Source of the DNA: a virus
Taxonomy: Duplodnaviria > Caudoviricetes
IMG/VR virus record: IMGVR_UViG_3300042465_005116
Coordinates: 96,001-160,000 of that record
DNA length: 64,000 bases
Strand: one strand, 5' to 3'
The first letter of the stretch is position 1, and the number at the start of each line of letters is the position of its first letter. The notes beneath the pieces were generated by a model. The model saw nothing but the letters and a program-made list of their open reading frames with translations. It ran no database searches and was not told where the DNA came from. Below, in pieces: positions 33,561 through 45,510 of the stretch. The translations under genes were made by a program, and so were the position numbers.

Positions 33561-34676
33561 TTAATGTGAATCTTCTACATTATGTTTTTCTGCAAAGATT
33601 AAATAATCTGGGTTAATAACTTTTGCAATCTTTTGTCTTTCGCCGGTTTGGTGTTTGATTACAATTCCTTCCTCTGGTACTTTTGTATTTGGAATAAAAT
33701 TATTGAATGTGTATTTATCTTGTACTTCTTGTGACCAACTTCCGTAGTGTAAAATTTCTACATAAGGTAATTCCAAAATATCTTTAATCAGTAACCTAGC
33801 ATTAATAACACTTAAATACTCACTATTCTCTTTTACATCGAATCCTACGAACTTAATCTCCGTTAACCCATAATCATATCCCTTTTGGATTCCCGCTCCG
33901 TAAATCTCACCATATAAGGTAATACCATCACCAATCTCCGGCTCCATTGTATTACTCTTAACATAATCCCACAACTTATTTTTGATATCGTATTTCCTTT
34001 CAATATCATACCAAACATTGGTATCATAGAATCCTTGAGAATCAGAGCCTTTCTCTACATTATGTGAACCAACTACAAATTCATATTCAGTCCATTTGTT
34101 ACCAAACAACTTTTTAATTCTATCTAATATAGATAATTTAGTTTTCTTAACAATACCATAACGAGCATTTGTTCCGTGAATCTTACGAGTAATTTCCACA
34201 GTGTCATCTTCAGTAAACATTCCCGGTACATTTTTTAAGTTAGGAAACTTATAGTAGACATGAAAGTGTGGGTTATCTTGATAACGAATCTTTCTACCAC
34301 TTGCTAATTGAACCATTTTAACTGGTGGTTCATATTTGTAAATACCTAAATAATCCATCATATCATCACCTTCACTAACGATTGGTGTTAACGTATATGG
34401 AATAATTAAAGACTCACTATAAACTCCTCTTAACTTAACAGTTCTAACCCTACCACCATTACGAAGATAATTGGTTACTCCTAATTTTTCGGATAAATCA
34501 AATGGAATTACCGCATCGGTTGTTGCACATATTACTAACTCACCAACATTATGAGCATCTTTTTTTACTATACAATTCCAACCACCAACTACTGCTAATT
34601 CAATATTATCAGCACCATCAATAGGTTTAATTTCATTTATTTTTGCCACATAGCAAACTGAATTATTATTTTCCAT
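33561..34676 (-). CDS. RNA ligase, DRB0094/Rnl-like
   Basis: N-terminal OB domain (IDGADNIE), motif I TRKIHGTN, YGEIYG, FDV, EEGIVIK; true start MENNN at 34676. Confidence 0.85.
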   Translation of the reverse strand: MENNNSVCYVAKINEIKPIDGADNIELAVVGGWNCIVKKDAHNVGELVICATTDAVIPFDLSEKLGVTNYLRNGGRVRTVKLRGVYSESLIIPYTLTPIVSEGDDMMDYLGIYKYEPPVKMVQLASGRKIRYQDNPHFHVYYKFPNLKNVPGMFTEDDTVEITRKIHGTNARYGIVKKTKLSILDRIKKLFGNKWTEYEFVVGSHNVEKGSDSQGFYDTNVWYDIERKYDIKNKLWDYVKSNTMEPEIGDGITLYGEIYGAGIQKGYDYGLTEIKFVGFDVKENSEYLSVINARLLIKDILELPYVEILHYGSWSQEVQDKYTFNNFIPNTKVPEEGIVIKHQTGERQKIAKVINPDYLIFAEKHNVEDSH

Positions 34677-34677
34677 A

Positions 34678-34974
34678 TTATTTATTTTTAAATTGTTCAA
34701 ACCATTCTTTAAATGATAATTTACATTCAATTCCATCAGATACATTTGCTTTCCAGCAAGCCATAAATGATTCTGCCATATCTTCCTCACTATACATTCT
34801 TTCTTTAGATTTAACACCCACTCTAAATCCACTCCAAAAAATATTGGCTTCACGATTTAAATCTGATAGATTAGATTCTTTTTCAGTATCCTCAACCCAA
34901 TTTTCATACAATCCCAAATTCTCATCATATCTCATCATGTCAATGAGGTGTTGTTTTTGTTCTTCTTTTTTCAT
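34678..34974 (-). CDS. hypothetical protein
   Basis: ORF track; abuts ligase. Confidence 0.55.
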   Translation of the reverse strand: MKKEEQKQHLIDMMRYDENLGLYENWVEDTEKESNLSDLNREANIFWSGFRVGVKSKERMYSEEDMAESFMACWKANVSDGIECKLSFKEWFEQFKNK

Positions 34975-35018
34975 AACTTTTCTATTTCTTAAAGGTTTCG
35001 TCGTAGTATTGTGTTCCT

Positions 35019-35531
35019 TTATAATTTAATCTCAAAACGATTTTTCATTTGTTCTAACTTATCAGCAGGAACTCCATGTTGATTTACTCCACCATGTCTA
35101 TTCTCTACTATAATAGTGAATACCATATAACCATACTTTTCAGCTAACTTAAAATATTCTTCCATCTCCCATTCTTGAGTAAATGTATTTGATACTACAA
35201 TCTCTGGATAGAATTGTGGATTGACTTCGTTATCTTTCATACGAATTTCGACTTGTTCTTTACACCACTTATGTGCATCTTTTATTTTAGAACCATCAAA
35301 ATTATAGTTTCCTTCTTTATCATAAAAGAATTTATCTGCTTCACAAATTGCGTAATCATTCCAAATGAATCCGGCTAATGTTGATTTACCACTTCCTGGT
35401 AATCCCCTTACTAATGTTAATACTTTTGGTATCATATATTTTATTTCTTGTTTATCAATAAACTCTTTTATAGCTTGTCGTTTTTCATCATTGAATACAT
35501 CTTCCAATTTAATTTCTTGTTTAGTTTCCAT
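35019..35531 (-). CDS. P-loop kinase (AAA_33/polynucleotide kinase-like)
   Basis: RGLPGSGKST, EAD.FF, VSNTF, NRHG..N.HGVP. Confidence 0.8.
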   Translation of the reverse strand: METKQEIKLEDVFNDEKRQAIKEFIDKQEIKYMIPKVLTLVRGLPGSGKSTLAGFIWNDYAICEADKFFYDKEGNYNFDGSKIKDAHKWCKEQVEIRMKDNEVNPQFYPEIVVSNTFTQEWEMEEYFKLAEKYGYMVFTIIVENRHGGVNQHGVPADKLEQMKNRFEIKL

Positions 35532-35537
35532 ACCATT

Positions 35538-36191
35538 TTATCTATAATTTTCAACTATTTCGTGGTGGTCAAACACAAACATACTTTTGATTGGTTGTTT
35601 ATTCATCAATCTTAATATCTCACTCATTTCAATTGGATACAATTCGTTTCCATCACATCCCACATCCATCATTTTACCCGAACCAATTCGTTTATCAGCC
35701 GGAAAGTGAACGTGTCCATGCAAATGGATAGCTCCCCTAGCCATATTATCCCAACTTGCTATTGGAAAGTGCATTAGAGCGAATCTTTGTTCTCCCATTA
35801 AAGGAGTCCCTACATTCCACTTAACAACTAAGTTTAAGTATTTGTTTACGGAACTAAATAACTTTTGACAACCTTCTTTATCACTTTCAATGTGATGGTC
35901 GTGGTTACCGGTAATGATGTGAACATTTTTACAAAAAATGCTATCTCTGAATTTTTGTATTTGTTCGAATCCTCCAAAACTCCAATCACCTAAATGGAAA
36001 AGGATATCATCCTGTTCAACCTTTTCGTTGATGTTAGCAATAAGGTGTGAGTTCATTTGTTCCAATGATATGAATTCTCTACACGTTACGGGGTCTGACC
36101 ATTGGGTTGTAGATGAACATATATTAGCATGGTTGTAGTGGGTATCACTTGTGAACCATAACCTTTGTCCTTTGTTTAGATTTAATTTCAT
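35538..36191 (-). CDS. calcineurin-like phosphoesterase
   Basis: SDTH, HLGDW, GNHD, HLHGHVH, DVGCD. Confidence 0.88.
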   Translation of the reverse strand: MKLNLNKGQRLWFTSDTHYNHANICSSTTQWSDPVTCREFISLEQMNSHLIANINEKVEQDDILFHLGDWSFGGFEQIQKFRDSIFCKNVHIITGNHDHHIESDKEGCQKLFSSVNKYLNLVVKWNVGTPLMGEQRFALMHFPIASWDNMARGAIHLHGHVHFPADKRIGSGKMMDVGCDGNELYPIEMSEILRLMNKQPIKSMFVFDHHEIVENYR

Positions 36192-36217
36192 AACCTTTTC
36201 TTATAACCAAATATACA

Positions 36218-36258
36218 AAAAAAACCTCACATTACCAAATAATTTATGAGGTTTTTTT
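36218..36258 (-). terminator. terminator at end of tRNA array, overlapping a host-type promoter (36208-36240)
   Basis: AAAAAACCTCA...TGAGGTTTTTT. Confidence 0.6.
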
Positions 36259-36262
36259 ATAG

Positions 36263-36336
36263 TGGACCAGATAGGATTCGAACCTATGACCTCAACATTA
36301 TGAGTGTTTTGCTCTAACCAACTGAGCTACAAGTCC
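36263..36336 (-). tRNA. tRNA with CAT anticodon (Met elongator or Ile2)
   Basis: cloverleaf, loop CTCATAA, GGTTCGAATCC. Confidence 0.88.
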
Positions 36337-36474
36337 ATTATCGTTTAATCTAACGATAAAATCTGATATCGTTTCTTTCAACGATAAAAAATAAGCAGGT
36401 GTGGAATCACCTACTTATATAGTGAATGAGAAACATATGAATCTCTTGCGGCTATATCACCAAAGCCCATTAGG

Positions 36475-36588
36475 TGCCGGAGGAAGGATTGGTTACCTAC
36501 ACGATTTCCTTACGGAGTAATCAACTTTTTACAAAGTCACGTCTCAAGGTTTACTACCCAAAGGGAATGCTCTTTCCGCCACTCCGGC
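36475..36588 (-). ncRNA. expanded tRNA-like RNA (114 nt)
   Basis: acceptor-like stem GCCGGAG/CTCCGGC+A; type-II-like 5' end; degenerate T arm. Confidence 0.6.
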
Positions 36589-36604
36589 ATATATCTTTTT
36601 TTTG

Positions 36605-36678
36605 TGGAGGTGATAGGAGTCGAACCTACTACCCTCTGCGTGCAAGGCAGATGCTCTAGCCAAATGAGCTACACCCCC
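36605..36678 (-). tRNA. tRNA-Ala(TGC)
   Basis: cloverleaf GGGGGTG...CACCTCCA. Confidence 0.95.
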
Positions 36679-36792
36679 CCAATTAATGTAATGTCTGTAC
36701 GGTTTGTATCTTATCCACACTTTTATTGTGTTTCATTAGTTTCCATTTCATACTTAGCGTCCGTTCCGTCATTCTTTCGAATCATTACATCG

Positions 36793-36878
36793 TACCAGAG
36801 GTGGGAGTCGAACCCACACGAGCGATTTATGCTCAACAGATTTTAAGTCTGTCATGTCTACCATTCCATCACTCCGGC
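36793..36878 (-). tRNA. tRNA-Leu(TAA)
   Basis: type II cloverleaf, loop CTTAAAA. Confidence 0.95.
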
Positions 36879-36894
36879 ATTTATTCTAATTATC

Positions 36895-37329
36895 CTAATT
36901 TAGTTTACTTAATATTACCCCATTAAGTTTAGTATGATTATCATCTGGATTTATTAATATATCGATTTTATTTTTCCATCGCGGATTCATTAAATCCCTA
37001 ACGTAGTAAACTCCATTGTATTTTCCAGCATTTGACACTCTTACTTTTTCACCAAATTTAAATTTCTTTTTTATATCTCTACTTACTGCAATCACTCTAT
37101 GTTTTTTAGGATTATCCTCATCTAATTCAAAGCCACTCGCCGTTTCTAACGGAGTATCATCAGTTTGTAAAGGGTCAATTGTATATGTAGTCATCGTAAC
37201 AACAAATTTCTTAATTTCCTTAACAACCTCTTCCTTTACCATAGTTTCGATTTTGAATGGATTGGGTGGGGTTACATTTGATGGTAGGATTACCGCAGTA
37301 ATTAATAATATCAATATTAATCTTTTCAT
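36895..37329 (-). CDS. 3D-domain (DPBB) cell-wall-binding/lytic protein
   Basis: signal peptide; TASG, VIAVSRD, VRD, KIDIL. Confidence 0.8.
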   Translation of the reverse strand: MKRLILILLITAVILPSNVTPPNPFKIETMVKEEVVKEIKKFVVTMTTYTIDPLQTDDTPLETASGFELDEDNPKKHRVIAVSRDIKKKFKFGEKVRVSNAGKYNGVYYVRDLMNPRWKNKIDILINPDDNHTKLNGVILSKLN

Positions 37330-37368
37330 AATTTACATTTATGGTTAATAATAACTATTACACTTTTG

Positions 37369-37442
37369 TGATTCGGAAAGGATTCGAACCTTTGGCCTAT
37401 TCATTAGAAGTGAATTGCTCTATCCAACTGAGCTACCGAACC
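37369..37442 (-). tRNA. tRNA-Arg(TCT)
   Basis: cloverleaf, loop CTTCTAA. Confidence 0.95.
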
Positions 37443-37615
37443 AAATCGTTGTTTCAACTTGCAAGTTTACTCTTAACATCTCTTTCTCTACAACGTCTGA
37501 ATTTAATCAACATTTGTAGTCCGAATGTAGCTTCTGGGTAATTACTCCAATGCTTCTATGTAACTCTATATAACTTACTTTGTTACTAAGTGTGTTAAGT
37601 GTATGAAACAACTTG

Positions 37616-37689
37616 CGGAATGTATGGGACTCGAACCCATGACCTCATCCGTGACAGGGATGCATTCTAACCAACTGAACTAACACTCC
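37616..37689 (-). tRNA. tRNA-Asp(GTC)
   Basis: cloverleaf, loop CTGTCAC, G73. Confidence 0.95.
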
Positions 37690-37694
37690 AAATG

Positions 37695-37767
37695 AGCCTC
37701 CTGTCGGATTCGAACCAACGACCCCTTCATTACAAGTGAAGTGCTCTACCAACTGAGCTAAGGAGGC
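37695..37767 (-). tRNA. tRNA-Thr(TGT)
   Basis: cloverleaf, loop CTTGTAA. Confidence 0.95.
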
Positions 37768-37855
37768 GTTTGATAGGTGACCCTCCTATCGTGAAACTAT
37801 ACATCGTTTCTTTTCTTTATAGAACTCTATTCAGAGAACTGCTGGAACATTTTTG

Positions 37856-37927
37856 TACTCCCAACGGGATTCGAACCCGTATTACTACCGTGAAAGGGTA
37901 GTGACCTAACCATTAGTCGATAGGAGC
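37856..37927 (-). tRNA. tRNA-Glu(TTC)
   Basis: cloverleaf, loop CTTTCAC. Confidence 0.95.
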
Positions 37928-37945
37928 ATATAATTTTATAACAAT

Positions 37946-37979
37946 GTAAAGATACGAAGAATATTCCACATATCCAAAT
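37946..37979 (-). promoter_or_regulatory. Bacteroidota-type promoter inside tRNA array
   Basis: TTTGGA...TTCGTATCTTTAC. Confidence 0.65.
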
Positions 37980-38441
37980 TTAATTGTGTATTTTTACTAA
38001 GTGGTCAGCAGCATAAGTTGCTATTGGCCCTAATGATTTATATCTTACTGAATACCCCATACCTTCAACCATACCCACTGCTTGTCTAAACACTTCGTTA
38101 GATTTAAAGCGTGGGTCTGGGTTCAAGTCAATATCAATCCACTTAGGTTTTGGAATACCAGCCTCGCGTAATTCTTCGGCAGTTTCAATTGCAAACCAAA
38201 CTTCTTGTAATAATCTAACTGAACGGATTCTTTCTCTTTCACTATTCCATCTTCTATACAATACATGTGCACCCTTTCCTTTTCTATATAAGGCAACTAC
38301 GATTGCATAAATAGTTTTGTTACCTGAATTTTGTGAATCACAACCAATTAAGATTTCTGCATCGGTATTCGTAATCATATATTCTTTGATATATGAAATC
38401 AATTCCACTTCTTCTGCCGTATACAATTTTTTATAAACCAT
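37980..38441 (-). CDS. RNase H-like YkuK (DUF458) family protein
   Basis: IGCDSQ, RLLQEV, IDID.N, ATYAAD. Confidence 0.8.
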   Translation of the reverse strand: MVYKKLYTAEEVELISYIKEYMITNTDAEILIGCDSQNSGNKTIYAIVVALYRKGKGAHVLYRRWNSERERIRSVRLLQEVWFAIETAEELREAGIPKPKWIDIDLNPDPRFKSNEVFRQAVGMVEGMGYSVRYKSLGPIATYAADHLVKIHN

Positions 38442-38461
38442 AATTTTACCTTTTTATTTTG

Positions 38462-38536
38462 TACCCATAGTAGGACTCGAACCTACAATTGTGTGGTGTC
38501 TAAAGCCACTGCGTATTCCAATTCCGCCATACGGGT
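38462..38536 (-). tRNA. tRNA-Leu(TAG), short variable region
   Basis: 75 nt, loop TTTAGAC, Leu-type D arm. Confidence 0.8.
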
Positions 38537-38545
38537 ATATTTCAG

Positions 38546-38631
38546 CAGAGAGTGAGGGGCTCGAACCCTCGCGGCTTTAACACCCTAACGATTTAGCAAA
38601 CCGTCCCCTTCACCAACTTGGGTAACTCTCT
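38546..38631 (-). tRNA. tRNA-Ser(GCT)
   Basis: type II cloverleaf, G73. Confidence 0.93.
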
Positions 38632-38633
38632 AT

Positions 38634-38710
38634 TGGGGTGATTAATGGGATTCGAACCCATACTATCAGTACCACAAACTGACGTGCTAACCATTAACAC
38701 TATAAACACC
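38634..38710 (-). tRNA. tRNA-His(GTG), with G-1 and encoded CCA
   Basis: loop TTGTGGT, C73-CCA. Confidence 0.93.
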
Positions 38711-38715
38711 ATATG

Positions 38716-38785
38716 TTGCGTGTTTGAGGTTTGAACTCAATTGGTCATCCTTATGAGAGATAACTCTTTTCCACTAAGCCACGCA
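38716..38785 (-). tRNA. degenerate 70-nt tRNA(CAT), possibly pseudogene
   Basis: T arm and CTCATAA loop intact; about 3 nt short between acceptor and D stem. Confidence 0.55.
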
Positions 38786-38790
38786 ATGTG

Positions 38791-38862
38791 AGGCGGGTAT
38801 TGGATTCGAACCAATGTTAAAGGTTTTGCAGACCTCCTCCTAACCACTCGAGACAACTCGCC
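38791..38862 (-). tRNA. tRNA-Cys(GCA)
   Basis: cloverleaf, U73. Confidence 0.93.
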
Positions 38863-38927
38863 ATTATTTGTTGTTCACTTTTTTTGTTTGTTCACCGATA
38901 GTGAACACTCTAAATTTGTGAACATTG

Positions 38928-39000
38928 TAGTTCCATAAGGACTCGAACCCTAACTTTTTCATCCGTAGTGAAAGGTGCTATCCAATTACACCATAGAACT
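38928..39000 (-). tRNA. tRNA-Arg(ACG)
   Basis: loop CTACGGA. Confidence 0.93.
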
Positions 39001-39006
39001 ATTTTG

Positions 39007-39077
39007 CACCCCCTGAAAGATTCGAACTTTCATCTGCGGTTTTGGAGACCGATATGCTACCATTGCACCAAAGAGAT
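39007..39077 (-). tRNA. tRNA-Trp(CCA)
   Basis: loop CTCCAAA; G-U-rich acceptor. Confidence 0.88.
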
Positions 39078-39139
39078 GTATTATTAGTGTTCCAAAACTC
39101 TATTTTTTTGTTAGATTTGGAACACCAATAACCAAATTG

Positions 39140-39213
39140 TTGGTAATGCGGGATTCGAACCTGCCACCTTCTCGGTATCAGCGAGATGCTCTAACCAAAT
39201 GAGCTAATTACCA
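39140..39213 (-). tRNA. tRNA-Ile(GAT)
   Basis: loop CTGATAC. Confidence 0.93.
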
Positions 39214-39219
39214 ATGTTG

Positions 39220-39295
39220 TCGGATAAGCAGGATTCGAACCTGCGTGCTCCACATCCCAAATGTGGCGAGATAGACCTGACTCCTCTACTATCCG
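39220..39295 (-). tRNA. tRNA-Pro(TGG)
   Basis: C1-G72, loop TTTGGGA. Confidence 0.93.
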
Positions 39296-39301
39296 TTATT
39301 G

Positions 39302-39375
39302 TGAACCCGAATGGACTCGAACCATTGACTCCCTCATTAAAAGTGAGGTGCTCTAACCAACTGAGCTACGAGTTC
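39302..39375 (-). tRNA. tRNA-Lys(TTT)
   Basis: loop CTTTTAA. Confidence 0.95.
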
Positions 39376-39381
39376 ATTCTG

Positions 39382-39454
39382 TGGAGAAAGTTGGTTACGC
39401 TCCAACTCCTGTGGATTTTCAGTCCACTGCTTCTACTAAGTTAGCTTCTTCTCC
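39382..39454 (-). tRNA. tRNA-Phe(GAA), non-canonical T loop
   Basis: loop CTGAAAA; T arm GTTGG-AGCGTAA-CCAAC. Confidence 0.85.
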
Positions 39455-39461
39455 TATTAAG

Positions 39462-39543
39462 TGCCTGCAGATGGACTCGAACCACCGAACTCCGAAGAGA
39501 GGAGATTTACAGTCTCCAGCAATTGCCACTATGCGATACAGGC
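39462..39543 (-). tRNA. tRNA-Tyr(GTA)
   Basis: type II cloverleaf, loop CTGTAAA. Confidence 0.95.
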
Positions 39544-39589
39544 TAATTGAGTTGTATTCCAAATTCGAATTTGGAATAATTTCAAATTG

Positions 39590-39663
39590 TAGAAGATATA
39601 GGATTCGAACCTATGACCCTTTGGATGTAAACCAAATGCTCTAACCAACTGAGCTAATCTTCT
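39590..39663 (-). tRNA. tRNA-Val(TAC)
   Basis: loop TTTACAT. Confidence 0.93.
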
Positions 39664-39669
39664 ATGTTG

Positions 39670-39741
39670 TTACTCGAATAGGATTCGAACCTATACTACA
39701 TCAGTCAAAGTGAGGTATGCTAACCATTACACCATCGAGCA
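39670..39741 (-). tRNA. tRNA-Gln(TTG)
   Basis: loop CTTTGAC. Confidence 0.9.
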
Positions 39742-39748
39742 ATTTATG

Positions 39749-39820
39749 AGCGGATGATAGGAATCGAACCTACGTCTCCTACTTGGAAGGAAGGAGTAAT
39801 AACCATTATACGACATCCGC
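39749..39820 (-). tRNA. tRNA-Gly(TCC)
   Basis: loop CTTCCAA, U73. Confidence 0.95.
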
Positions 39821-39838
39821 ATGTCAAAGAACCAATTG

Positions 39839-39910
39839 AGGGAAGGGAGAATTTCGAAATCTCGACCTGATGATTAACAGTCATCTGCTCTGCCTCTGAG
39901 CTACCATCCC
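39839..39910 (-). tRNA. tRNA-Asn(GTT)
   Basis: loop CTGTTAA. Confidence 0.9.
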
Positions 39911-39916
39911 ATAAAC

Positions 39917-39952
39917 GAAAAAACCCTTAACTTTTTTATCAGTTAAGGGTTC
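39917..39952 (-). terminator. attenuator-type intrinsic terminator directly upstream of tRNA array
   Basis: minus strand AACCCTTAACT-GATAAAA-AGTTAAGGGTT followed by T tract. Confidence 0.85.
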
Positions 39953-39981
39953 TTAAAATATTGTTATAAAATTTTTACATT

Positions 39982-40104
39982 CTATCCACGTTTTACATCC
40001 CTTAACTTACTTCTATCCTCAATCATATTGAAGACACGATTGCCACCCCAAGCACATTTCTGTGTCGGTAGATAACTAAGCGTATGTATTGTTAAAGTTG
40101 CCAT
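39982..40104 (-). CDS. 40-aa leader peptide (putative attenuator uORF)
   Basis: MATLTIHTLSYLPTQKCAWGGNRVFNMIEDRSKLRDVKRG*; contains copy of terminator 3' arm at 39999-40008. Confidence 0.75.
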   Translation of the reverse strand: MATLTIHTLSYLPTQKCAWGGNRVFNMIEDRSKLRDVKRG

Positions 40105-40159
40105 TGTGTATAAGTATATTAAAAACTAATTTATGTTTGTTTTTGTGTTAATAAAATAA

Positions 40160-41095
40160 AAAAAAGTAACTCATCTTCAATATGCACCATCCATGTCATG
40201 CACTGGTTGACAAAAGCCTCGATAAATTACTTAGTATTTTTTAAAAAAATCTGGATGAGAATACTCCATCTTATGAACCAGCTTTATAAGGGTTATTGGT
40301 TACCTTAATTTCCACTACCTTTTGAGTAGTACCGATTCAATGTGGGTAAGTAATGCCTACCAATCATAAAGTTACAACCTACTCTCTTTTTACTCCGCCA
40401 CTTCGAATCTGCCGACCCGATTCACATCTCGCGATGCTAGAAGTTTTTCGAAAGAATCACATTTACCTTGAGAGTATTTGTGGCAGTGAACGACTCACTA
40501 CTATGTACACACCTTTCACTTGCAACTGGTAACCACTTTTTCTTTTATTTTTATTTGATTTTCACCATTGAAAGTAAAAGTTTTGGTTTGTAGAAGAATT
40601 CAAGTAGTGGATTACCACTAGCTCCGTTCCATTTTGAAGAACGGAATACTATACTACTCGATACGATATCCCTATCGTCATATTTTAAGTCTACTTCATA
40701 TCTAAACCTTTGGTAAAGTAAAGATAAGGATAATAACAACACCACTTGTACATCATCATACCTTTCGATTTTAAGTAAACTTTCATATTGAATCACGCAA
40801 TGATATGGAGAGATTAAGTCCGTACTTCTTGCAATAACTCTATGGATTATTCTTATTGGTGTCCCCACCTCAACTGAACTTCTACCTAGCCCAGTCATTA
40901 AACCATTTCACTACGGAGTTACCCTCACTAATCAGGTCTAATGATATTCCACTTGCATACTCAAGCTCCATTCCTTTCGGTCTGAAACCGCAAATTAATT
41001 AACCAACTAATTCACTTTATCCTACTTTCGTAGTTTATTTAACCACCATATGCGGCGGGTATGTACTATGTACCACAAGGATACTATGTACAATA
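40160..41095 (-). ncRNA. ~900 nt large structured ncRNA, GOLLD-like candidate
   Basis: no credible ORF, many GNRA-capped hairpins, tandem promoters upstream, T tract at 3' end, tRNA-cluster context; boundaries approximate. Confidence 0.6.
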
Positions 41096-41131
41096 TGTTT
41101 CGATAATTTAAAGAACTTTTTTTTGTTAAGT

Positions 41132-41270
41132 CAAAGATACGAAATCTTTTTCACTTTTCCAAATTTATTTTAAACTTTTTTTTGTTATGTCTAATACCGA
41201 GTATCTTTCATCGCCTATAAGTTTAGAACTAACTTTGTAAAGATACGAAAACATTTTCACATTTCCAAAT
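41132..41270 (-). promoter_or_regulatory. two tandem Bacteroidota-type promoters (41132-41163, 41238-41270)
   Basis: TTTGGAAA...TTCGTATCTTT(G/A). Confidence 0.75.
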
Positions 41271-41341
41271 CTTTTTTTAATTATTTTTTGTGATATTATA
41301 TATAAGTATATAAAAATATACCAAACGTAAAATAATCATTG

Positions 41342-41413
41342 TAGCGGGTGAAGGATTCGAACCTCCGACCTATAGGTTATGAGCCTACCGAGCTACCACT
41401 GCTCTAACCCGCA
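41342..41413 (-). tRNA. initiator tRNA-fMet(CAT)
   Basis: unpaired 1:72 (U/U), AGAGCAG..GGTAGCTCG D arm; only two G-C pairs at anticodon stem base. Confidence 0.85.
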
Positions 41414-41543
41414 ATATAATTTTAAAGAACATAAAACAAAGTAAGATAATGATATCCGGCGTTATAGTTTACCACTTATGGTTGGACTTCACACATTCGG
41501 TTTTATTAGATGTTGGCTTCAACCACTATCTTATTTTGTTAAG

Positions 41544-41577
41544 TCAAAGATACGAAAACATTTTCATATTTCCAAAT
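41544..41577 (-). promoter_or_regulatory. Bacteroidota-type promoter
   Basis: TTTGGAAA...TTCGTATCTTTG; flanks duplicate those at 41123-41277. Confidence 0.75.
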
Positions 41578-41589
41578 CTTTTTTAATAT

Positions 41590-42036
41590 TTATTTTACTT
41601 TGTAAGATAATCCCAATCCTAATGTAAAATCATCACCAATTAAATTACCAATTCCCCATAAATTTATAACACTACTTGGTCTTAGTGGATTGTACATTAT
41701 AAGAAAATTTGGTTTATTACCATTAAGTGTAGGTTGTAATCCAAACCCAATAATCGCCTTATCCTCTTTTACTTGTCTAAGAACACCAAACTTCATATTA
41801 TCAGATACATTTCCTGTTTTGGTATTAACTCCCGGAGGAATTACTATTCCACCATTTTGTCCACCATATTCATCATACGGAAGTCCCGCATAAAATCCCC
41901 ATCCTTTTTTCATAAATCCACCTGTAATGTATCCATCAGATGGTCCACCCTTGCGGGTAGCGGTTATAAACCACTCTTGCCCTTTTGCATTAATACTTAT
42001 TCCGAGTATCAAAGCCATCACTAATAATTTTTTCAT
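41590..42036 (-). CDS. secreted outer-membrane beta-barrel-like protein
   Basis: signal peptide, amphipathic strands, terminal LGLGLSY. Confidence 0.55.
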   Translation of the reverse strand: MKKLLVMALILGISINAKGQEWFITATRKGGPSDGYITGGFMKKGWGFYAGLPYDEYGGQNGGIVIPPGVNTKTGNVSDNMKFGVLRQVKEDKAIIGFGLQPTLNGNKPNFLIMYNPLRPSSVINLWGIGNLIGDDFTLGLGLSYKVK

Positions 42037-42347
42037 AGTGCCTTTATGCTCTTTGTTTTTTCAAGAGAATCCTCTCTTATCCATTTTTGTTTTAACTTAT
42101 CTATTTTTTCAATTTTTAGGATTTTACCTTTAAGTGAGACAATCTCCTTCGTAACCTTTTCGGTACGAACCGTACGTGCAGCGAAATCTTCTTCGGTGAT
42201 TTCAATCAATTCTTTTTTTCGATTAAGAACTGATATTTCTTTTTGGATTTTTTCTATCGCTTTACCATCATTAATCAATGAGGGGTCGATAGAATTACCA
42301 ATACTATTAAAAAATAATAATATGGGTAAGGTAAGTTTTTCTAACAT
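42033..42347 (-). CDS. coiled-coil protein with signal-like N-terminus
   Basis: ORF track; TATTTATA upstream. Confidence 0.6.
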   Translation of the reverse strand: MLEKLTLPILLFFNSIGNSIDPSLINDGKAIEKIQKEISVLNRKKELIEITEEDFAARTVRTEKVTKEIVSLKGKILKIEKIDKLKQKWIREDSLEKTKSIKAL

Positions 42348-42430
42348 TTGTAATCAATAGTTAAAAGTGTAACACATATAAATACATTATTATATATTTT
42401 TAATTAAATATATAACAATAATTTATTAAG

Positions 42431-42806
42431 TGGTGGAGGTGGAGGGAGTCGAACCCTCGTCCAAATACGGATTCAATAAACATCATTCACAAGCTTAGTT
42501 AGTTTTTCTTAACTAACAAAATATTCGGTTGGTTCTTCACCATCGGCAACCGATAAACAATGGGTGATTCGATTTTGGGTTCAATCACTTTTCCACCTTT
42601 GTACACATTCTTTTTAAAGTCCCACGATGTGTGCGGGAGGGATTAGGCTGCTATAGCGTAATCAGCACCTACGAAAGACATTACATCTTCGAAGGTCATT
42701 GTAGATAATTCTACGTCGTTTATTGTTCGATAGGTATTTACGGATTTCCATCTAACCCGGCTTGCAACTTACCAACTCATCGTACCTGTCAAAACCAGGC
42801 ACCCCC
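42431..42806 (-). ncRNA. ssrA: tmRNA
   Basis: 5' GGGGGTGCCTGGTTTTGAC, 3' GGGTTCGACTCCCTCCACCTCCACCA, tag ORF ending YAIAA*. Confidence 0.95.
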
Positions 42807-42808
42807 AT

Positions 42809-43495
42809 TTATTTTTTATTCAAAGAACGTTTAATTAAATTCTGAACCTTTTCATTTCTCAAATCAATGTACAACATTATAGTTGCTCTATATTCATTTG
42901 AGTAATTATACACATTATGATAATGATAAGAATTAAAATAATATGCTTTACCTACTTCTAATCTTTTTCTAAATATATTCGTAAACCAATCAGGTCTATG
43001 AAATCGCTTCCACCATTTAAATTCAGCCGAATCTACTACACAATATTCAAACTTTTCTGGTACTATAATTGGAATTTGAATAGTTAGTTCCCATTCTTCT
43101 TGTCCATGTTCCAATACGTGCGAGTGCCAAACTAAAGATTGTTTAGGTGCAATTCGCATCACCCTAGCTCTACTATCTAATTGGTTACCACTAATGTTTG
43201 CACATATCTCATACATATAAGGTATTGTGGATTCCAATTCGGTTTTCTGAAAGTTATATTGCTCAGTACCATCTTCGTACATATCTTTATACAAACTTCC
43301 ATCAGAACTAATCAATGAAATACCACTCCATGCTTTACGATACTTTCTTCGTACTTGCCAAAAGTTAGTTCTATAATCTTTGAATTTGTATTTGTTTTTT
43401 AACAATCCATATTCATCAATTAGTTTATCTAAATCAATATCAATGTCCAATTCTAAAAATGGAATACTTTTTAGTTGTTGTATAAGTTCATTCAT
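42809..43495 (-). CDS. Asp/Asn beta-hydroxylase-like 2OG oxygenase
   Basis: RARVMRI, WHSH, YYFN..HYHNVYN....R; true start MNELIQ at 43495. Confidence 0.7.
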   Translation of the reverse strand: MNELIQQLKSIPFLELDIDIDLDKLIDEYGLLKNKYKFKDYRTNFWQVRRKYRKAWSGISLISSDGSLYKDMYEDGTEQYNFQKTELESTIPYMYEICANISGNQLDSRARVMRIAPKQSLVWHSHVLEHGQEEWELTIQIPIIVPEKFEYCVVDSAEFKWWKRFHRPDWFTNIFRKRLEVGKAYYFNSYHYHNVYNYSNEYRATIMLYIDLRNEKVQNLIKRSLNKK

Positions 43496-43507
43496 ATTAA
43501 TTAATTG

Positions 43508-43676
43508 CTGTAAGAGGAGGATTCGAACCATCCACGATGCGATTCAGTAAGTAACACTTTCTCCGGCCGGATGGTGGTCTACCCCATATTACTTACCTAT
43601 TTCGTTCTCACCACCCCCGAGACAGGAGGGCTTGTCTACCCGGTCATACTGAGACAACCTTTTCCAACACCTTACA
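43508..43676 (-). ncRNA. giant (169 nt) tRNA-like RNA with GTC anticodon loop
   Basis: acceptor TGTAAGG/TCTTACA+G73; arm CCCTC-CTGTCTC-GGGGG; TTCGAAT loop; large D and variable insertions. Confidence 0.7.
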
Positions 43677-43772
43677 ATATATGAACTAACTCACTGGAAA
43701 CCTTATAATTGAATTCAATCAACTTATGGGTTAAGTACTCCGTTTATGTTAGTTCCTCGTACTCCAAGTTTG

Positions 43773-43857
43773 CAGAGAGTTAGGGATTCGAACCCCAGAT
43801 ACCTTTCAGTATGCCAGTTTTCAAGACTGGTGCCATCAACCACTCGGCCAACTCTCT
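43773..43857 (-). tRNA. tRNA-Ser(TGA)
   Basis: type II cloverleaf, loop CTTGAAA. Confidence 0.95.
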
Positions 43858-43865
43858 GTTTAATA

Positions 43866-44350
43866 TTATTGAATATGAGTTTCTTCGTTTCGAAGTGCTC
43901 TCACATCTAATGTAATATTTGATTGTCTTCTTCTTGCTTCTTCAGCTTCTTTATACCAACGAATCCAAGTTAAGGAAACATCAATTGGTGCAAGAACCCA
44001 TGCCATTACCACTACCATAATAGTATCCAATTCAGGAGAACCACCGATGGGGTCATTGCTGTATCTTTTATCTAAATTTTTAAATAATTGATAGAAACAA
44101 TAAAGAACACAAATAATGTAATACGTTAAAAACATATATTAAATTTTAATTAAACGCCTGAAGTTTTTACATCAACTAAAAAGTTTTTTAATCTTTCTAA
44201 TTTTTCAATCGTTGTAGTTGTTCCTGTAATTGGATTCAGTTCTAAAATAATATCATCTAATGATGCTGCAGTTACTAATAACGCATCGTCTTTAGAATTT
44301 AAATAGTTGTCTGAAATTCTGTACTTTTTGCAAATCTCTTGTAAGTTCAT
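43866..44350 (-). CDS. two small ORFs: membrane protein 43866-44135, hypothetical 44150-44350
   Basis: ORF track; second start trimmed to MNLQEI. Confidence 0.55.
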
Positions 44351-44367
44351 ATTATTGTTTTTTTGTT

Positions 44368-45510
44368 TTAAATTAAAGCCCTTGTTTGTTTTGATTCTAA
44401 ATGCCAAAAATTATGTATTATATGTTGTCTATTACCAATCATTTTTAATTGTTTTAATAATACATTATATAGTGGATGTGATTCTTCTTGAACTGAACGG
44501 TCTTTTAACCATTCTTTTGTTTGATGATTCCAATCTTGTATTGCTCTAAATGTAATTGTATATCCATTTTCAGGACTCCACTTTCCATATATATCCTCAA
44601 TCATATTTACAAAATCATTCATTTCACGTACATTATGGTCTTGAACTACGAATGAAAAATTTCTATTATTAAATTTTAAGGTAGAATGATATTTTAAATT
44701 AGCCATTAAAGTATCCCAATTCCCATTTAACCTTACTTTATTTTCATATGTTTCTTTAGTTGCTGCATCAATTGATATTTCATATTCACGAACATATGGA
44801 TGAATTGGTTTAACCGATTCCCACATTTCCTGTGTCCACATATTTCCGTTTGAAACTATATAAATTTGTTTCAATTTTGGATATCGTTTGTAATCAAATG
44901 TTTGCATAAACTTTCTAAATACATTTGAATAAAATGGGTCACCACTACCTGTAATATGAATCATCTCAACCTCATTACTAAATTGTTCATTAATATCTTT
45001 TAAAATATTATCAACAAATTTATCTTTACGATTTGGTATAGTATCTAATCTACAAGATGGACATTTCAAATTACATGCGTAATCAAAATTAAAATAAATT
45101 AATTTTGGAAATAATTTCCATTCACTATCAGTTTCAGAAAGATTATATTTTTTAAAAAATTCTTCTCTCTTATAAAAGTATCCAAAATATACTGATTGTC
45201 CATAGTCCGATTCAAACTCATTTAATAATACCTTTTCATCAGTATTAATAAGTTTAGATAAAAATGGGCACTTAGTTTTTGAACAATATTTATATGAACC
45301 ATCTAAGATTCCTTCTCTTACCTTTGTATTAATATCATTAAACCAAACATCTTTTAATTCTTTAGTTTCACCGGGATTTAAATGAGACCAATCTTCAAAT
45401 GGAATATCCATCCAATCTGGACAACAACTCCAAGTCGAATTATGGAATACCATAAAATCTTCAAATGGTGCTCTACAAATATAGTTTTTTAAATTAACCT
45501 TCTCACTCAT
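44368..45510 (-). CDS. radical SAM protein with SPASM-like domain (paralog of 16602-17648)
   Basis: CRAPF..CCP..YC..KCP; CNLKCPSC; ITGSGDPF; ISIDAA. Confidence 0.88.
   Translation of the reverse strand: MSEKVNLKNYICRAPFEDFMVFHNSTWSCCPDWMDIPFEDWSHLNPGETKELKDVWFNDINTKVREGILDGSYKYCSKTKCPFLSKLINTDEKVLLNEFESDYGQSVYFGYFYKREEFFKKYNLSETDSEWKLFPKLIYFNFDYACNLKCPSCRLDTIPNRKDKFVDNILKDINEQFSNEVEMIHITGSGDPFYSNVFRKFMQTFDYKRYPKLKQIYIVSNGNMWTQEMWESVKPIHPYVREYEISIDAATKETYENKVRLNGNWDTLMANLKYHSTLKFNNRNFSFVVQDHNVREMNDFVNMIEDIYGKWSPENGYTITFRAIQDWNHQTKEWLKDRSVQEESHPLYNVLLKQLKMIGNRQHIIHNFWHLESKQTRALI

Follow-up and report, generated by a model that had tools for sequence, protein, structure and literature searches.

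A proposed leader-peptide attenuator of phage tRNA genes, with leader codons matched to the tRNA block that follows

What decides when a phage expresses its tRNA genes? Such genes are usually viewed as constitutive supplements to codon usage or as decoys against anticodon nucleases, and to our knowledge their control is essentially unknown. The locus analysed here poses the question in a particular form. It lies in a window of 64,000 nucleotides, positions 96,001 to 160,000 of the IMG/VR virus record IMGVR_UViG_3300042465_005116 (all positions below are those of the window), whose minus strand carries, in order, a GOLLD RNA, a Bacteroidota-type promoter region, a 40-codon ORF, a strong terminator and 21 tRNA genes, the switch and the array both lying entirely on that strand (Table 1). 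The original prediction held that the ORF is the leader peptide of an attenuator which senses all 20 amino acids and gates the tRNA genes behind it. Our analysis leads us to the reading that a ribosome-mediated (leader-peptide) transcription attenuator controls the phage tRNA operon, to which we assign a probability of roughly 0.8; the support that it receives from comparison among phages is strong, and none of it comes from experiment.

Table 1. Positions of the features discussed, in window coordinates; columns give the feature, its position, its strand, and the basis or a remark.
GOLLD RNA	40661-40252	-	Rfam, 264 bits
Probable -7 promoter box, TAGTTTTT	40121..40128	-	7/8 matches to Bacteroidota TAnnTTTG; assignment in the window inferred
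TATACTTAT motif, between -7 box and ATG; contains TACTTATA	40110..40118	-	Probable leader-transcript start region
Leader ORF, 40 codons + stop	39982..40104	-	ATG 40104, stop 39984-39982; orthologues in relatives
Sensing part, codons 1-31	40012..40104	-	All 20 amino acids, all 22 tRNA codon boxes, no TCN Ser codon
Region 2, antiterminator strand AAGTTAAGGG, codons 33-36	39999..40008	-	Complementary to 5' arm of terminator
Region 3, terminator 5' arm	39941..39954	-	Terminator prediction, folding
Region 4, terminator 3' arm + T run	39918..39932	-	Hairpin about -17 kcal/mol
Controlled operon (putative), 21 tRNA genes (Asn to Ala) + two embedded ORFs	36604..39910	-	ARAGORN, Rfam, gene annotation
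RNaseH-like (PF04308) gene inside tRNA array	37980-38441	-	Embedded ORF
ORF of unknown product inside array	36895-37329	-	Embedded ORF
Second terminator, likely operon end	36391..36418	-	Conserved in L078 and L126
RNA ligase (PF09414 + PHA02142 OB-fold domain), AAA_33 P-loop kinase, calcineurin-like phosphoesterase	33561-36191	-	Directly after array
tmRNA, 24-residue tag ending AIAA	42806-42431	-	Rfam + ARAGORN; relatives have tmRNA too

The gap from the GOLLD RNA to tRNA-Asn is filled by an AT-rich spacer, the leader ORF and the terminator. A strong terminator a few nucleotides before tRNA-Asn, as had been proposed, is indeed present: its 14 pairs at 39954-39919 are followed by six T, and it ends 8 nt short of the tRNA, which starts at 39910. 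From there down to 36262 ARAGORN finds 22 tRNA genes representing all 20 amino acids, so that of the predicted array of 23 genes covering every amino acid the coverage stands and the count does not. Rfam additionally gives a sub-threshold tRNA-like match (22.9 bits) at 38716-38785 (-), between tRNA-His and tRNA-Cys; this match may represent a degenerate tRNA, which would account for the earlier count. The last tRNA (Met, 36262-36336) sits beyond the second terminator and may stand outside the attenuated operon. The RNaseH-like gene embedded in the array is conserved in this setting, inside tRNA arrays, on at least 80 phage contigs of IMG/VR.

The leader ORF itself is as originally described, with 20 of 20 amino acids reached by codon 30; the shortest complete span comprises 24 residues (codons 7-30), and codons 1-31 sample each of the codon boxes served by downstream tRNAs. 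Its Ser codons are AGT only, and the only Ser tRNA of the operon is GCT, which reads AGY. No leader among those compared is complete in a more compact form than this one, with 20 amino acids and 22 codon boxes within 31 codons. How surprising is such an ORF? If codons are drawn at the frequencies used by this phage, the chance that an ORF of 40 codons is complete in amino acids is P = 0.005; for all 22 tRNA codon boxes it is P = 2.6e-4, and for all 22 boxes inside 31 codons P = 3e-6. These numbers have to be set beside the possibility of coincidence, that is, of an untranslated chance ORF before an ordinary terminator that ends an upstream GOLLD or spacer transcript. Complete ORFs make up 0.45% of control small ORFs (6,390 unique ORFs in 2.1 Mb of related DNA), and the hypothesis was framed after the sequence had been inspected. 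Moreover, a second stretch with all 20 amino acids, 26 residues at 37475-37552 (-) in the spacer between tRNA-Asp and tRNA-Arg, was rejected as a candidate and attributed to chance, having no 5' start codon and only an internal ATG. Taken alone, the single window is merely suggestive, and the decision was therefore taken from relatives.

Homologous ORFs before the tRNA arrays of related phages, which the original prediction had named as a check, do exist. We assembled 37 distinct units of the same design from 32 related loci, belonging to lake phages of IMG/VR, to a 634-kb phage and to Cellulophaga phage phi40:1. The RNaseH-like protein encoded inside the array, used as a query, yielded 80 IMG/VR loci, from which units were extracted as a terminator at most 200 nt upstream of a tRNA together with an ATG ORF ending 10-45 nt before that terminator; L137:1002, L150:1079 and L186:3543 were left out as false positives, being C-terminal ends of ordinary genes or standing before single tRNAs. 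BLAST against phage records found the 634-kb uncultured phage (L001), which has the same terminator-plus-tRNA-Asn junction. The word GGGTTTTTTCGTTTA in the 3' arm of the window's terminator is also present in L001, L054, L078 and L102; a scan with the GGGTTTTTTCGTTTA pattern returned 120 loci, mostly unrelated terminators, of which only L054, L078 and L102 were useful and L118 was ambiguous. The contig of the closest relative (L078, L124, L125) stops exactly at the terminator, and its leader is absent from the comparison. Many of the 37 units are related by descent and are not independent of one another.

In these units the leader ORF has 21-53 codons and ends 20-34 nt ahead of an intrinsic terminator, which in turn precedes the tRNAs. 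Four types of leader recur, besides several single cases. Type A is the window's own and, like type D, stands before complete arrays; type B precedes the block Leu-Arg-Pro-Asn-Leu-Tyr-Met-Val-Gly-Thr-Gly-Gln-Ser, and type C the block Ile-Phe-Lys-Trp-Arg-Cys-His-Met-Ser-Glu. The family A orthologues in L127, L129, L132, L133 and L136 are 33-45% identical to the window leader, with L4, H7, P13, T14, W19, G21 and F25 invariant. Orthologous leaders before complete arrays are complete as well, and this completeness is kept by way of differing residues: in the orthologues a GKVDYIS segment, absent from the window, provides Tyr, Asp and Val, and the window has the same three residues at codons 11, 30 and 24 instead. 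In two short family A variants of 22-24 codons (L138:443-511 and L139:4600-4674) the stop codon overlaps region 2, and the leader covers no more than the tRNAs at the start of a long, gapped array.

Leaders ahead of partial arrays are informative in another way, as they hold just the amino acids of those arrays. The L001 array has 19 tRNAs serving only Asn, Arg, Leu, Val, Ile, Thr and Met, and 24 of the first 25 codons of its 38-codon leader are drawn from these seven amino acids. The 37-codon leader of L102, found by the pattern scan, precedes 17 tRNAs; leader and array have an identical set of 16 amino acids, with A, D, E and G missing from both. In phi40:1 the leader (L205:1571-1648, from an internal ATG at 1571) lies within gp066 (L205:1541-1648), annotated as a 35-aa hypothetical protein, and precedes a terminator and Lys-Ile-Gly-Asp-Thr-Val-Arg tRNAs; all seven amino acids (7/7) are present in it. 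Small ORFs annotated ahead of phage tRNA arrays may often be such leaders.

Over the whole collection, 35 of 37 leaders lack no amino acid that their own block serves, where length-matched control ORFs lead us to expect 2.8. Each of 13 representative units exceeds its controls (p between 2e-4 and 0.013, limited by the number of controls), and for eight of these, of different types, the combined p is about 5e-15. Could the composition of the genome alone produce such a match? Phages with two tRNA blocks carry two leaders, each fitting its own block only, and in a swap test on the five phages with both B and C units, the fraction of residues belonging to the leader's own block was 0.67-0.95 as against 0.05-0.52 for the other block. 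Since the test separates the blocks within one genome, composition is ruled out as the cause. A particularly clear case is L141, where the Asp and Glu tRNAs are in the other block and Gln is in this one: the C-type leader reads WASQR instead of WADER, while the B-type leader gains Glu and Asp.

The match extends from amino acids to codon boxes. For Leu, Arg and Ser, in blocks that have only one of the two box tRNAs, 84 leader codons lie in the matching box versus 23 in the other; in L132 and L133 Ser-TGA is also in the block and a TCN codon is also in the leader. The correspondence stops at the box: exact matching of the third base to the phage anticodons was considered and rejected, half of the leader codons in four-fold boxes ending in U or C whereas the phage tRNAs have U34. 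Leader codons are also decoded by host tRNAs, and residues from outside the leader's own block do occur, for instance Lys at codon 2 and in the last 8 codons. The match also depends on position along the ORF. Around 0.9 of residues belong to the block's set at 13-24 codons before the stop (0.57 expected), and the fraction falls to a background value of 0.5 in the last four codons. Only stalls well upstream would leave region 2 free, and the footprint of the ribosome therefore predicts the gradient that is observed.

With these comparisons in hand, coincidence can be judged again. The ORF is kept at orthologous positions, leader and array match far beyond the controls, own and other blocks are told apart by the swap test, codon boxes agree with anticodons, and the copy of the terminator arm inside the ORF covaries with the terminator (see below). 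On these comparative data the coincidence reading appears close to refuted, and we regard it as very improbable.

The codon boxes bear equally on a second alternative, in which the switch is the same and the signal is not phage tRNA output: the leader would respond to amino-acid starvation, to a general slowing of host translation (charging, ppGpp-type stress) or to tRNA cleavage by an anticodon nuclease. A stalled ribosome is blind to the cause of a missing charged tRNA, and leader codons in four-fold boxes are not limited to those that the phage tRNAs read best. RNA-repair genes (phosphoesterase, kinase and RNA ligase) lie directly downstream of the array, which would fit a conflict over tRNA cleavage. 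A pure amino-acid sensor, however, would have no reason to track the Leu, Arg and Ser boxes of the tRNAs that are present, nor to omit amino acids whose tRNAs occupy the phage's other block, and we consider this alternative quite unlikely. A leader matched to the tRNA supply of its own block remains our preferred reading.

Attenuation requires, besides a suitable ORF, an RNA that can fold in two ways. Region 2, at codons 33-36, is, as claimed at the outset, an exact copy of the terminator 3' arm and can pair with the 5' arm; in the window the duplex of region 2 with the 5' arm amounts to -12.9 kcal/mol (z = -2.7). When the duplex between leader and 5' arm is compared with dinucleotide shuffles across the units, z averages -2.6 and is below -2 in 26 of 37 units, the terminators comprising at least nine unrelated sequences; in three family C leaders the antiterminator is weak, with z about 0. 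The median distance from the end of region 2 to the stop codon is about 11 nt. The expectation that the stems would covary was borne out. In L001 the terminator sequence differs and the copy within the ORF, CTGAGGGTT, matches that differing 3' arm. Across six sequences of family A the 2:3 helix consists of standard pairs throughout (36/36 cells), including two compensatory changes, one from GC to AU and one from AU to GC, and the terminator helix is likewise preserved. The core of the family B helix, GTTCGG/CCGAAC, is invariant; the base flanking it varies and agrees in about 10 of 14 cases, which on its own can be called only suggestive of covariation.

Folding of the window's RNA is consistent with a choice between these helices that depends on where the ribosome stands. 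Nascent RNA folded to the end of the 5' arm pairs region 2 with that arm. With a ribosome placed at codons 5-28 the 2:3 pairing persists, and with a ribosome at codons 30-36 it is lost. The full-length RNA favours the terminator, and the nascent fold without a ribosome favours read-through. In the full-length minimum free energy fold codons 2-5 pair with region 2 (a 1:2 helix), whereas the nascent fold prefers 2:3; a conserved 1:2, or anti-antiterminator, helix is not established. If we assume a footprint of 15 nt on the 5' side, a ribosome parked at the stop codon in the window covers only the last base of region 2. Since the parked ribosome barely touches region 2, termination would have to depend on timing or on steric hindrance. 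A T-box would be another way of sensing tRNA, and a search of 35000-45000 gave no Rfam match to the T-box family (RF00230), even at E <= 1.

It is also conceivable that the ORF is translated and conserved and has some other role, either timing tRNA expression in the course of infection through the coupling of transcription and translation or encoding a functional micro-protein. The invariant positions of family A would be expected for such a peptide, no experiment ties read-through to tRNA levels, and the nascent fold suggests that read-through is the default state. The composition of a functional peptide would not, on the other hand, be expected to follow the tRNA block, or to be entirely different in front of the two blocks of a single phage. 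Moreover, the last codons appear to be constrained by RNA pairing rather than by the peptide, with CSD versus SSD tracking TGTTCGG versus AGTTCGG. We thus hold this possibility to be unlikely, without dismissing it, and continue with leader-peptide attenuation.

Is there a promoter from which a leader transcript could start? A perfect TAnnTTTG precedes the start codon in 21 of 37 leaders, at a distance that is mostly 25-38 nt, with 0.08 expected per region. The window has an imperfect version, TAGTTTTT, 24 nt ahead of the ATG, and it is followed there by the word ATACTTAT, which precedes the ATG in many family A and B leaders. The original prediction had placed a promoter-like element at 40109-40116, and this assignment has to be given up: as a sigma-70 -10 box TACTTATA is rejected, being part of the recurrent TATACTTAT motif between the -7 box and the ATG. 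Across the window TATACTTAT is not enriched, with 3 matches against 2.8 expected. No Shine-Dalgarno sequence was found before the leader ORF, and the genes of the window are without one in 45 of 47 cases (long ORFs). Lake-water metagenomes from at least 14 studies contain the stretch. Because of the TAnnTTTG boxes, the scarcity of Shine-Dalgarno words and the lake origin, we infer that the host is probably a freshwater member of Bacteroidota.

Evidence for RNA from the leader region consists of one 175-nt metatranscriptome contig of depth 3 on 40000-40174. Contigs from four lake runs pile up instead on about 40240-41100 (~860 nt), the full GOLLD RNA, with very high contig depth. These data are assembled contigs, and they show neither the strand nor the transcript ends nor translation over the leader. 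The covariance match to GOLLD (RF02032) does not reach the switch, ending at 40252, 148 nt upstream of the ATG; GOLLD is a neighbour of the switch and not part of it. In relatives GOLLD adjoins the tRNA/tmRNA island as well, upstream of the leader in L127, L129, L132, L136 and L139 and downstream of the arrays in L141 and L156.

How might the observed anatomy, its conservation, the match of leader to tRNAs and the covarying alternative pairing work together? Apart from a conserved 1:2 helix, the structural features that define leader-peptide attenuators are present: a positioned ORF, matched control codons, an intrinsic terminator and an alternative antiterminator pairing. We propose that a short transcript would start from the promoter just upstream, and that the first 31 codons would query every tRNA encoded downstream once or a few times. 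Where a charged tRNA is scarce, the ribosome would slow at the matching codon and leave codons 33-36, that is region 2, free to base-pair with the newly made 5' arm of the terminator; no terminator would then form, and RNA polymerase would continue into the tRNA genes. Where decoding is fast, the ribosome would cross region 2 and come to rest at the stop codon, which lies past region 2 and short of the terminator; the hairpin would form, and transcription would end 8 nt before tRNA-Asn. The net effect would be a demand-driven negative feedback on the supply of the tRNAs that the block encodes. In the absence of functional data it is an inference that the ORF is translated and that the hairpin terminates transcription, and the same holds for the direction of the response and for its physiological trigger.

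A broader conjecture follows the same lines, and we put it forward with only slightly more belief than doubt. In many large phages each tRNA block would be gated by a translated 'codon test strip' that measures decoding speed for each codon box and opens when any one is slow; the window leader would then be a universal sensor of decoding capacity. The genes directly after the array look like a tRNA healing-and-sealing set. Together with these RNA-repair genes, the tmRNA and GOLLD, the sensor could form a module that senses and repairs attacks on translation, for example by anticodon nucleases, although the link to anticodon nucleases is speculation.

Attenuation, if confirmed, would mean that the phage gauges how fast codons are read and provides tRNAs according to need, and it would extend the classical mechanism from amino-acid synthesis to the tRNA pool. 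It would also provide a natural sensor for 20 amino acids in about 190 nt, and account for many of the small "hypothetical proteins" annotated before phage tRNA arrays. The unit of phi40:1, in a cultured Cellulophaga phage, makes the idea directly testable, and defined transcription-translation systems would also suit the sensor. A full-text search, which did not cover most papers in subscription journals, found no published description of leader-peptide control of phage or cellular tRNA genes.

Among known systems, the trpL, hisL, leuL, thrL and ilvGMEDA leaders are multivalent leader-peptide attenuators of enterobacterial amino-acid operons, in which a stalled ribosome leads to read-through. 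The phage element shares with the trpL/hisL type a short leader ORF with control codons ahead of the strand that forms the antiterminator; in both, the 2:3 and 3:4 hairpins exclude each other and the genes are preceded by an intrinsic terminator. Unlike that type, it appears to control tRNAs rather than biosynthetic enzymes, and its leaders have no run of a single codon, containing instead 7 to 20 amino acids with one to a few codons each, matched to the block. Further differences are that region 2 is part of the ORF and precedes its stop codon, that no conserved 1:2 helix was found in the phage element, and that the phage host is Bacteroidota-like, without Shine-Dalgarno sequences. Another such system is pheST with its pheM leader, an attenuator of phenylalanyl-tRNA synthetase, where leader-peptide attenuation likewise acts on a component of the translation apparatus and gives feedback on the supply of charged tRNA; pheST, however, senses one amino acid and controls a synthetase protein rather than tRNA genes. 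T-box riboswitches resemble the proposed phage switch in sensing tRNA status and in placing a terminator/antiterminator pair upstream of translation-related genes, but they bind uncharged tRNA directly and have no ORF. On the reading preferred here, the phage element is attenuation of the trp/his type applied to tRNA genes.
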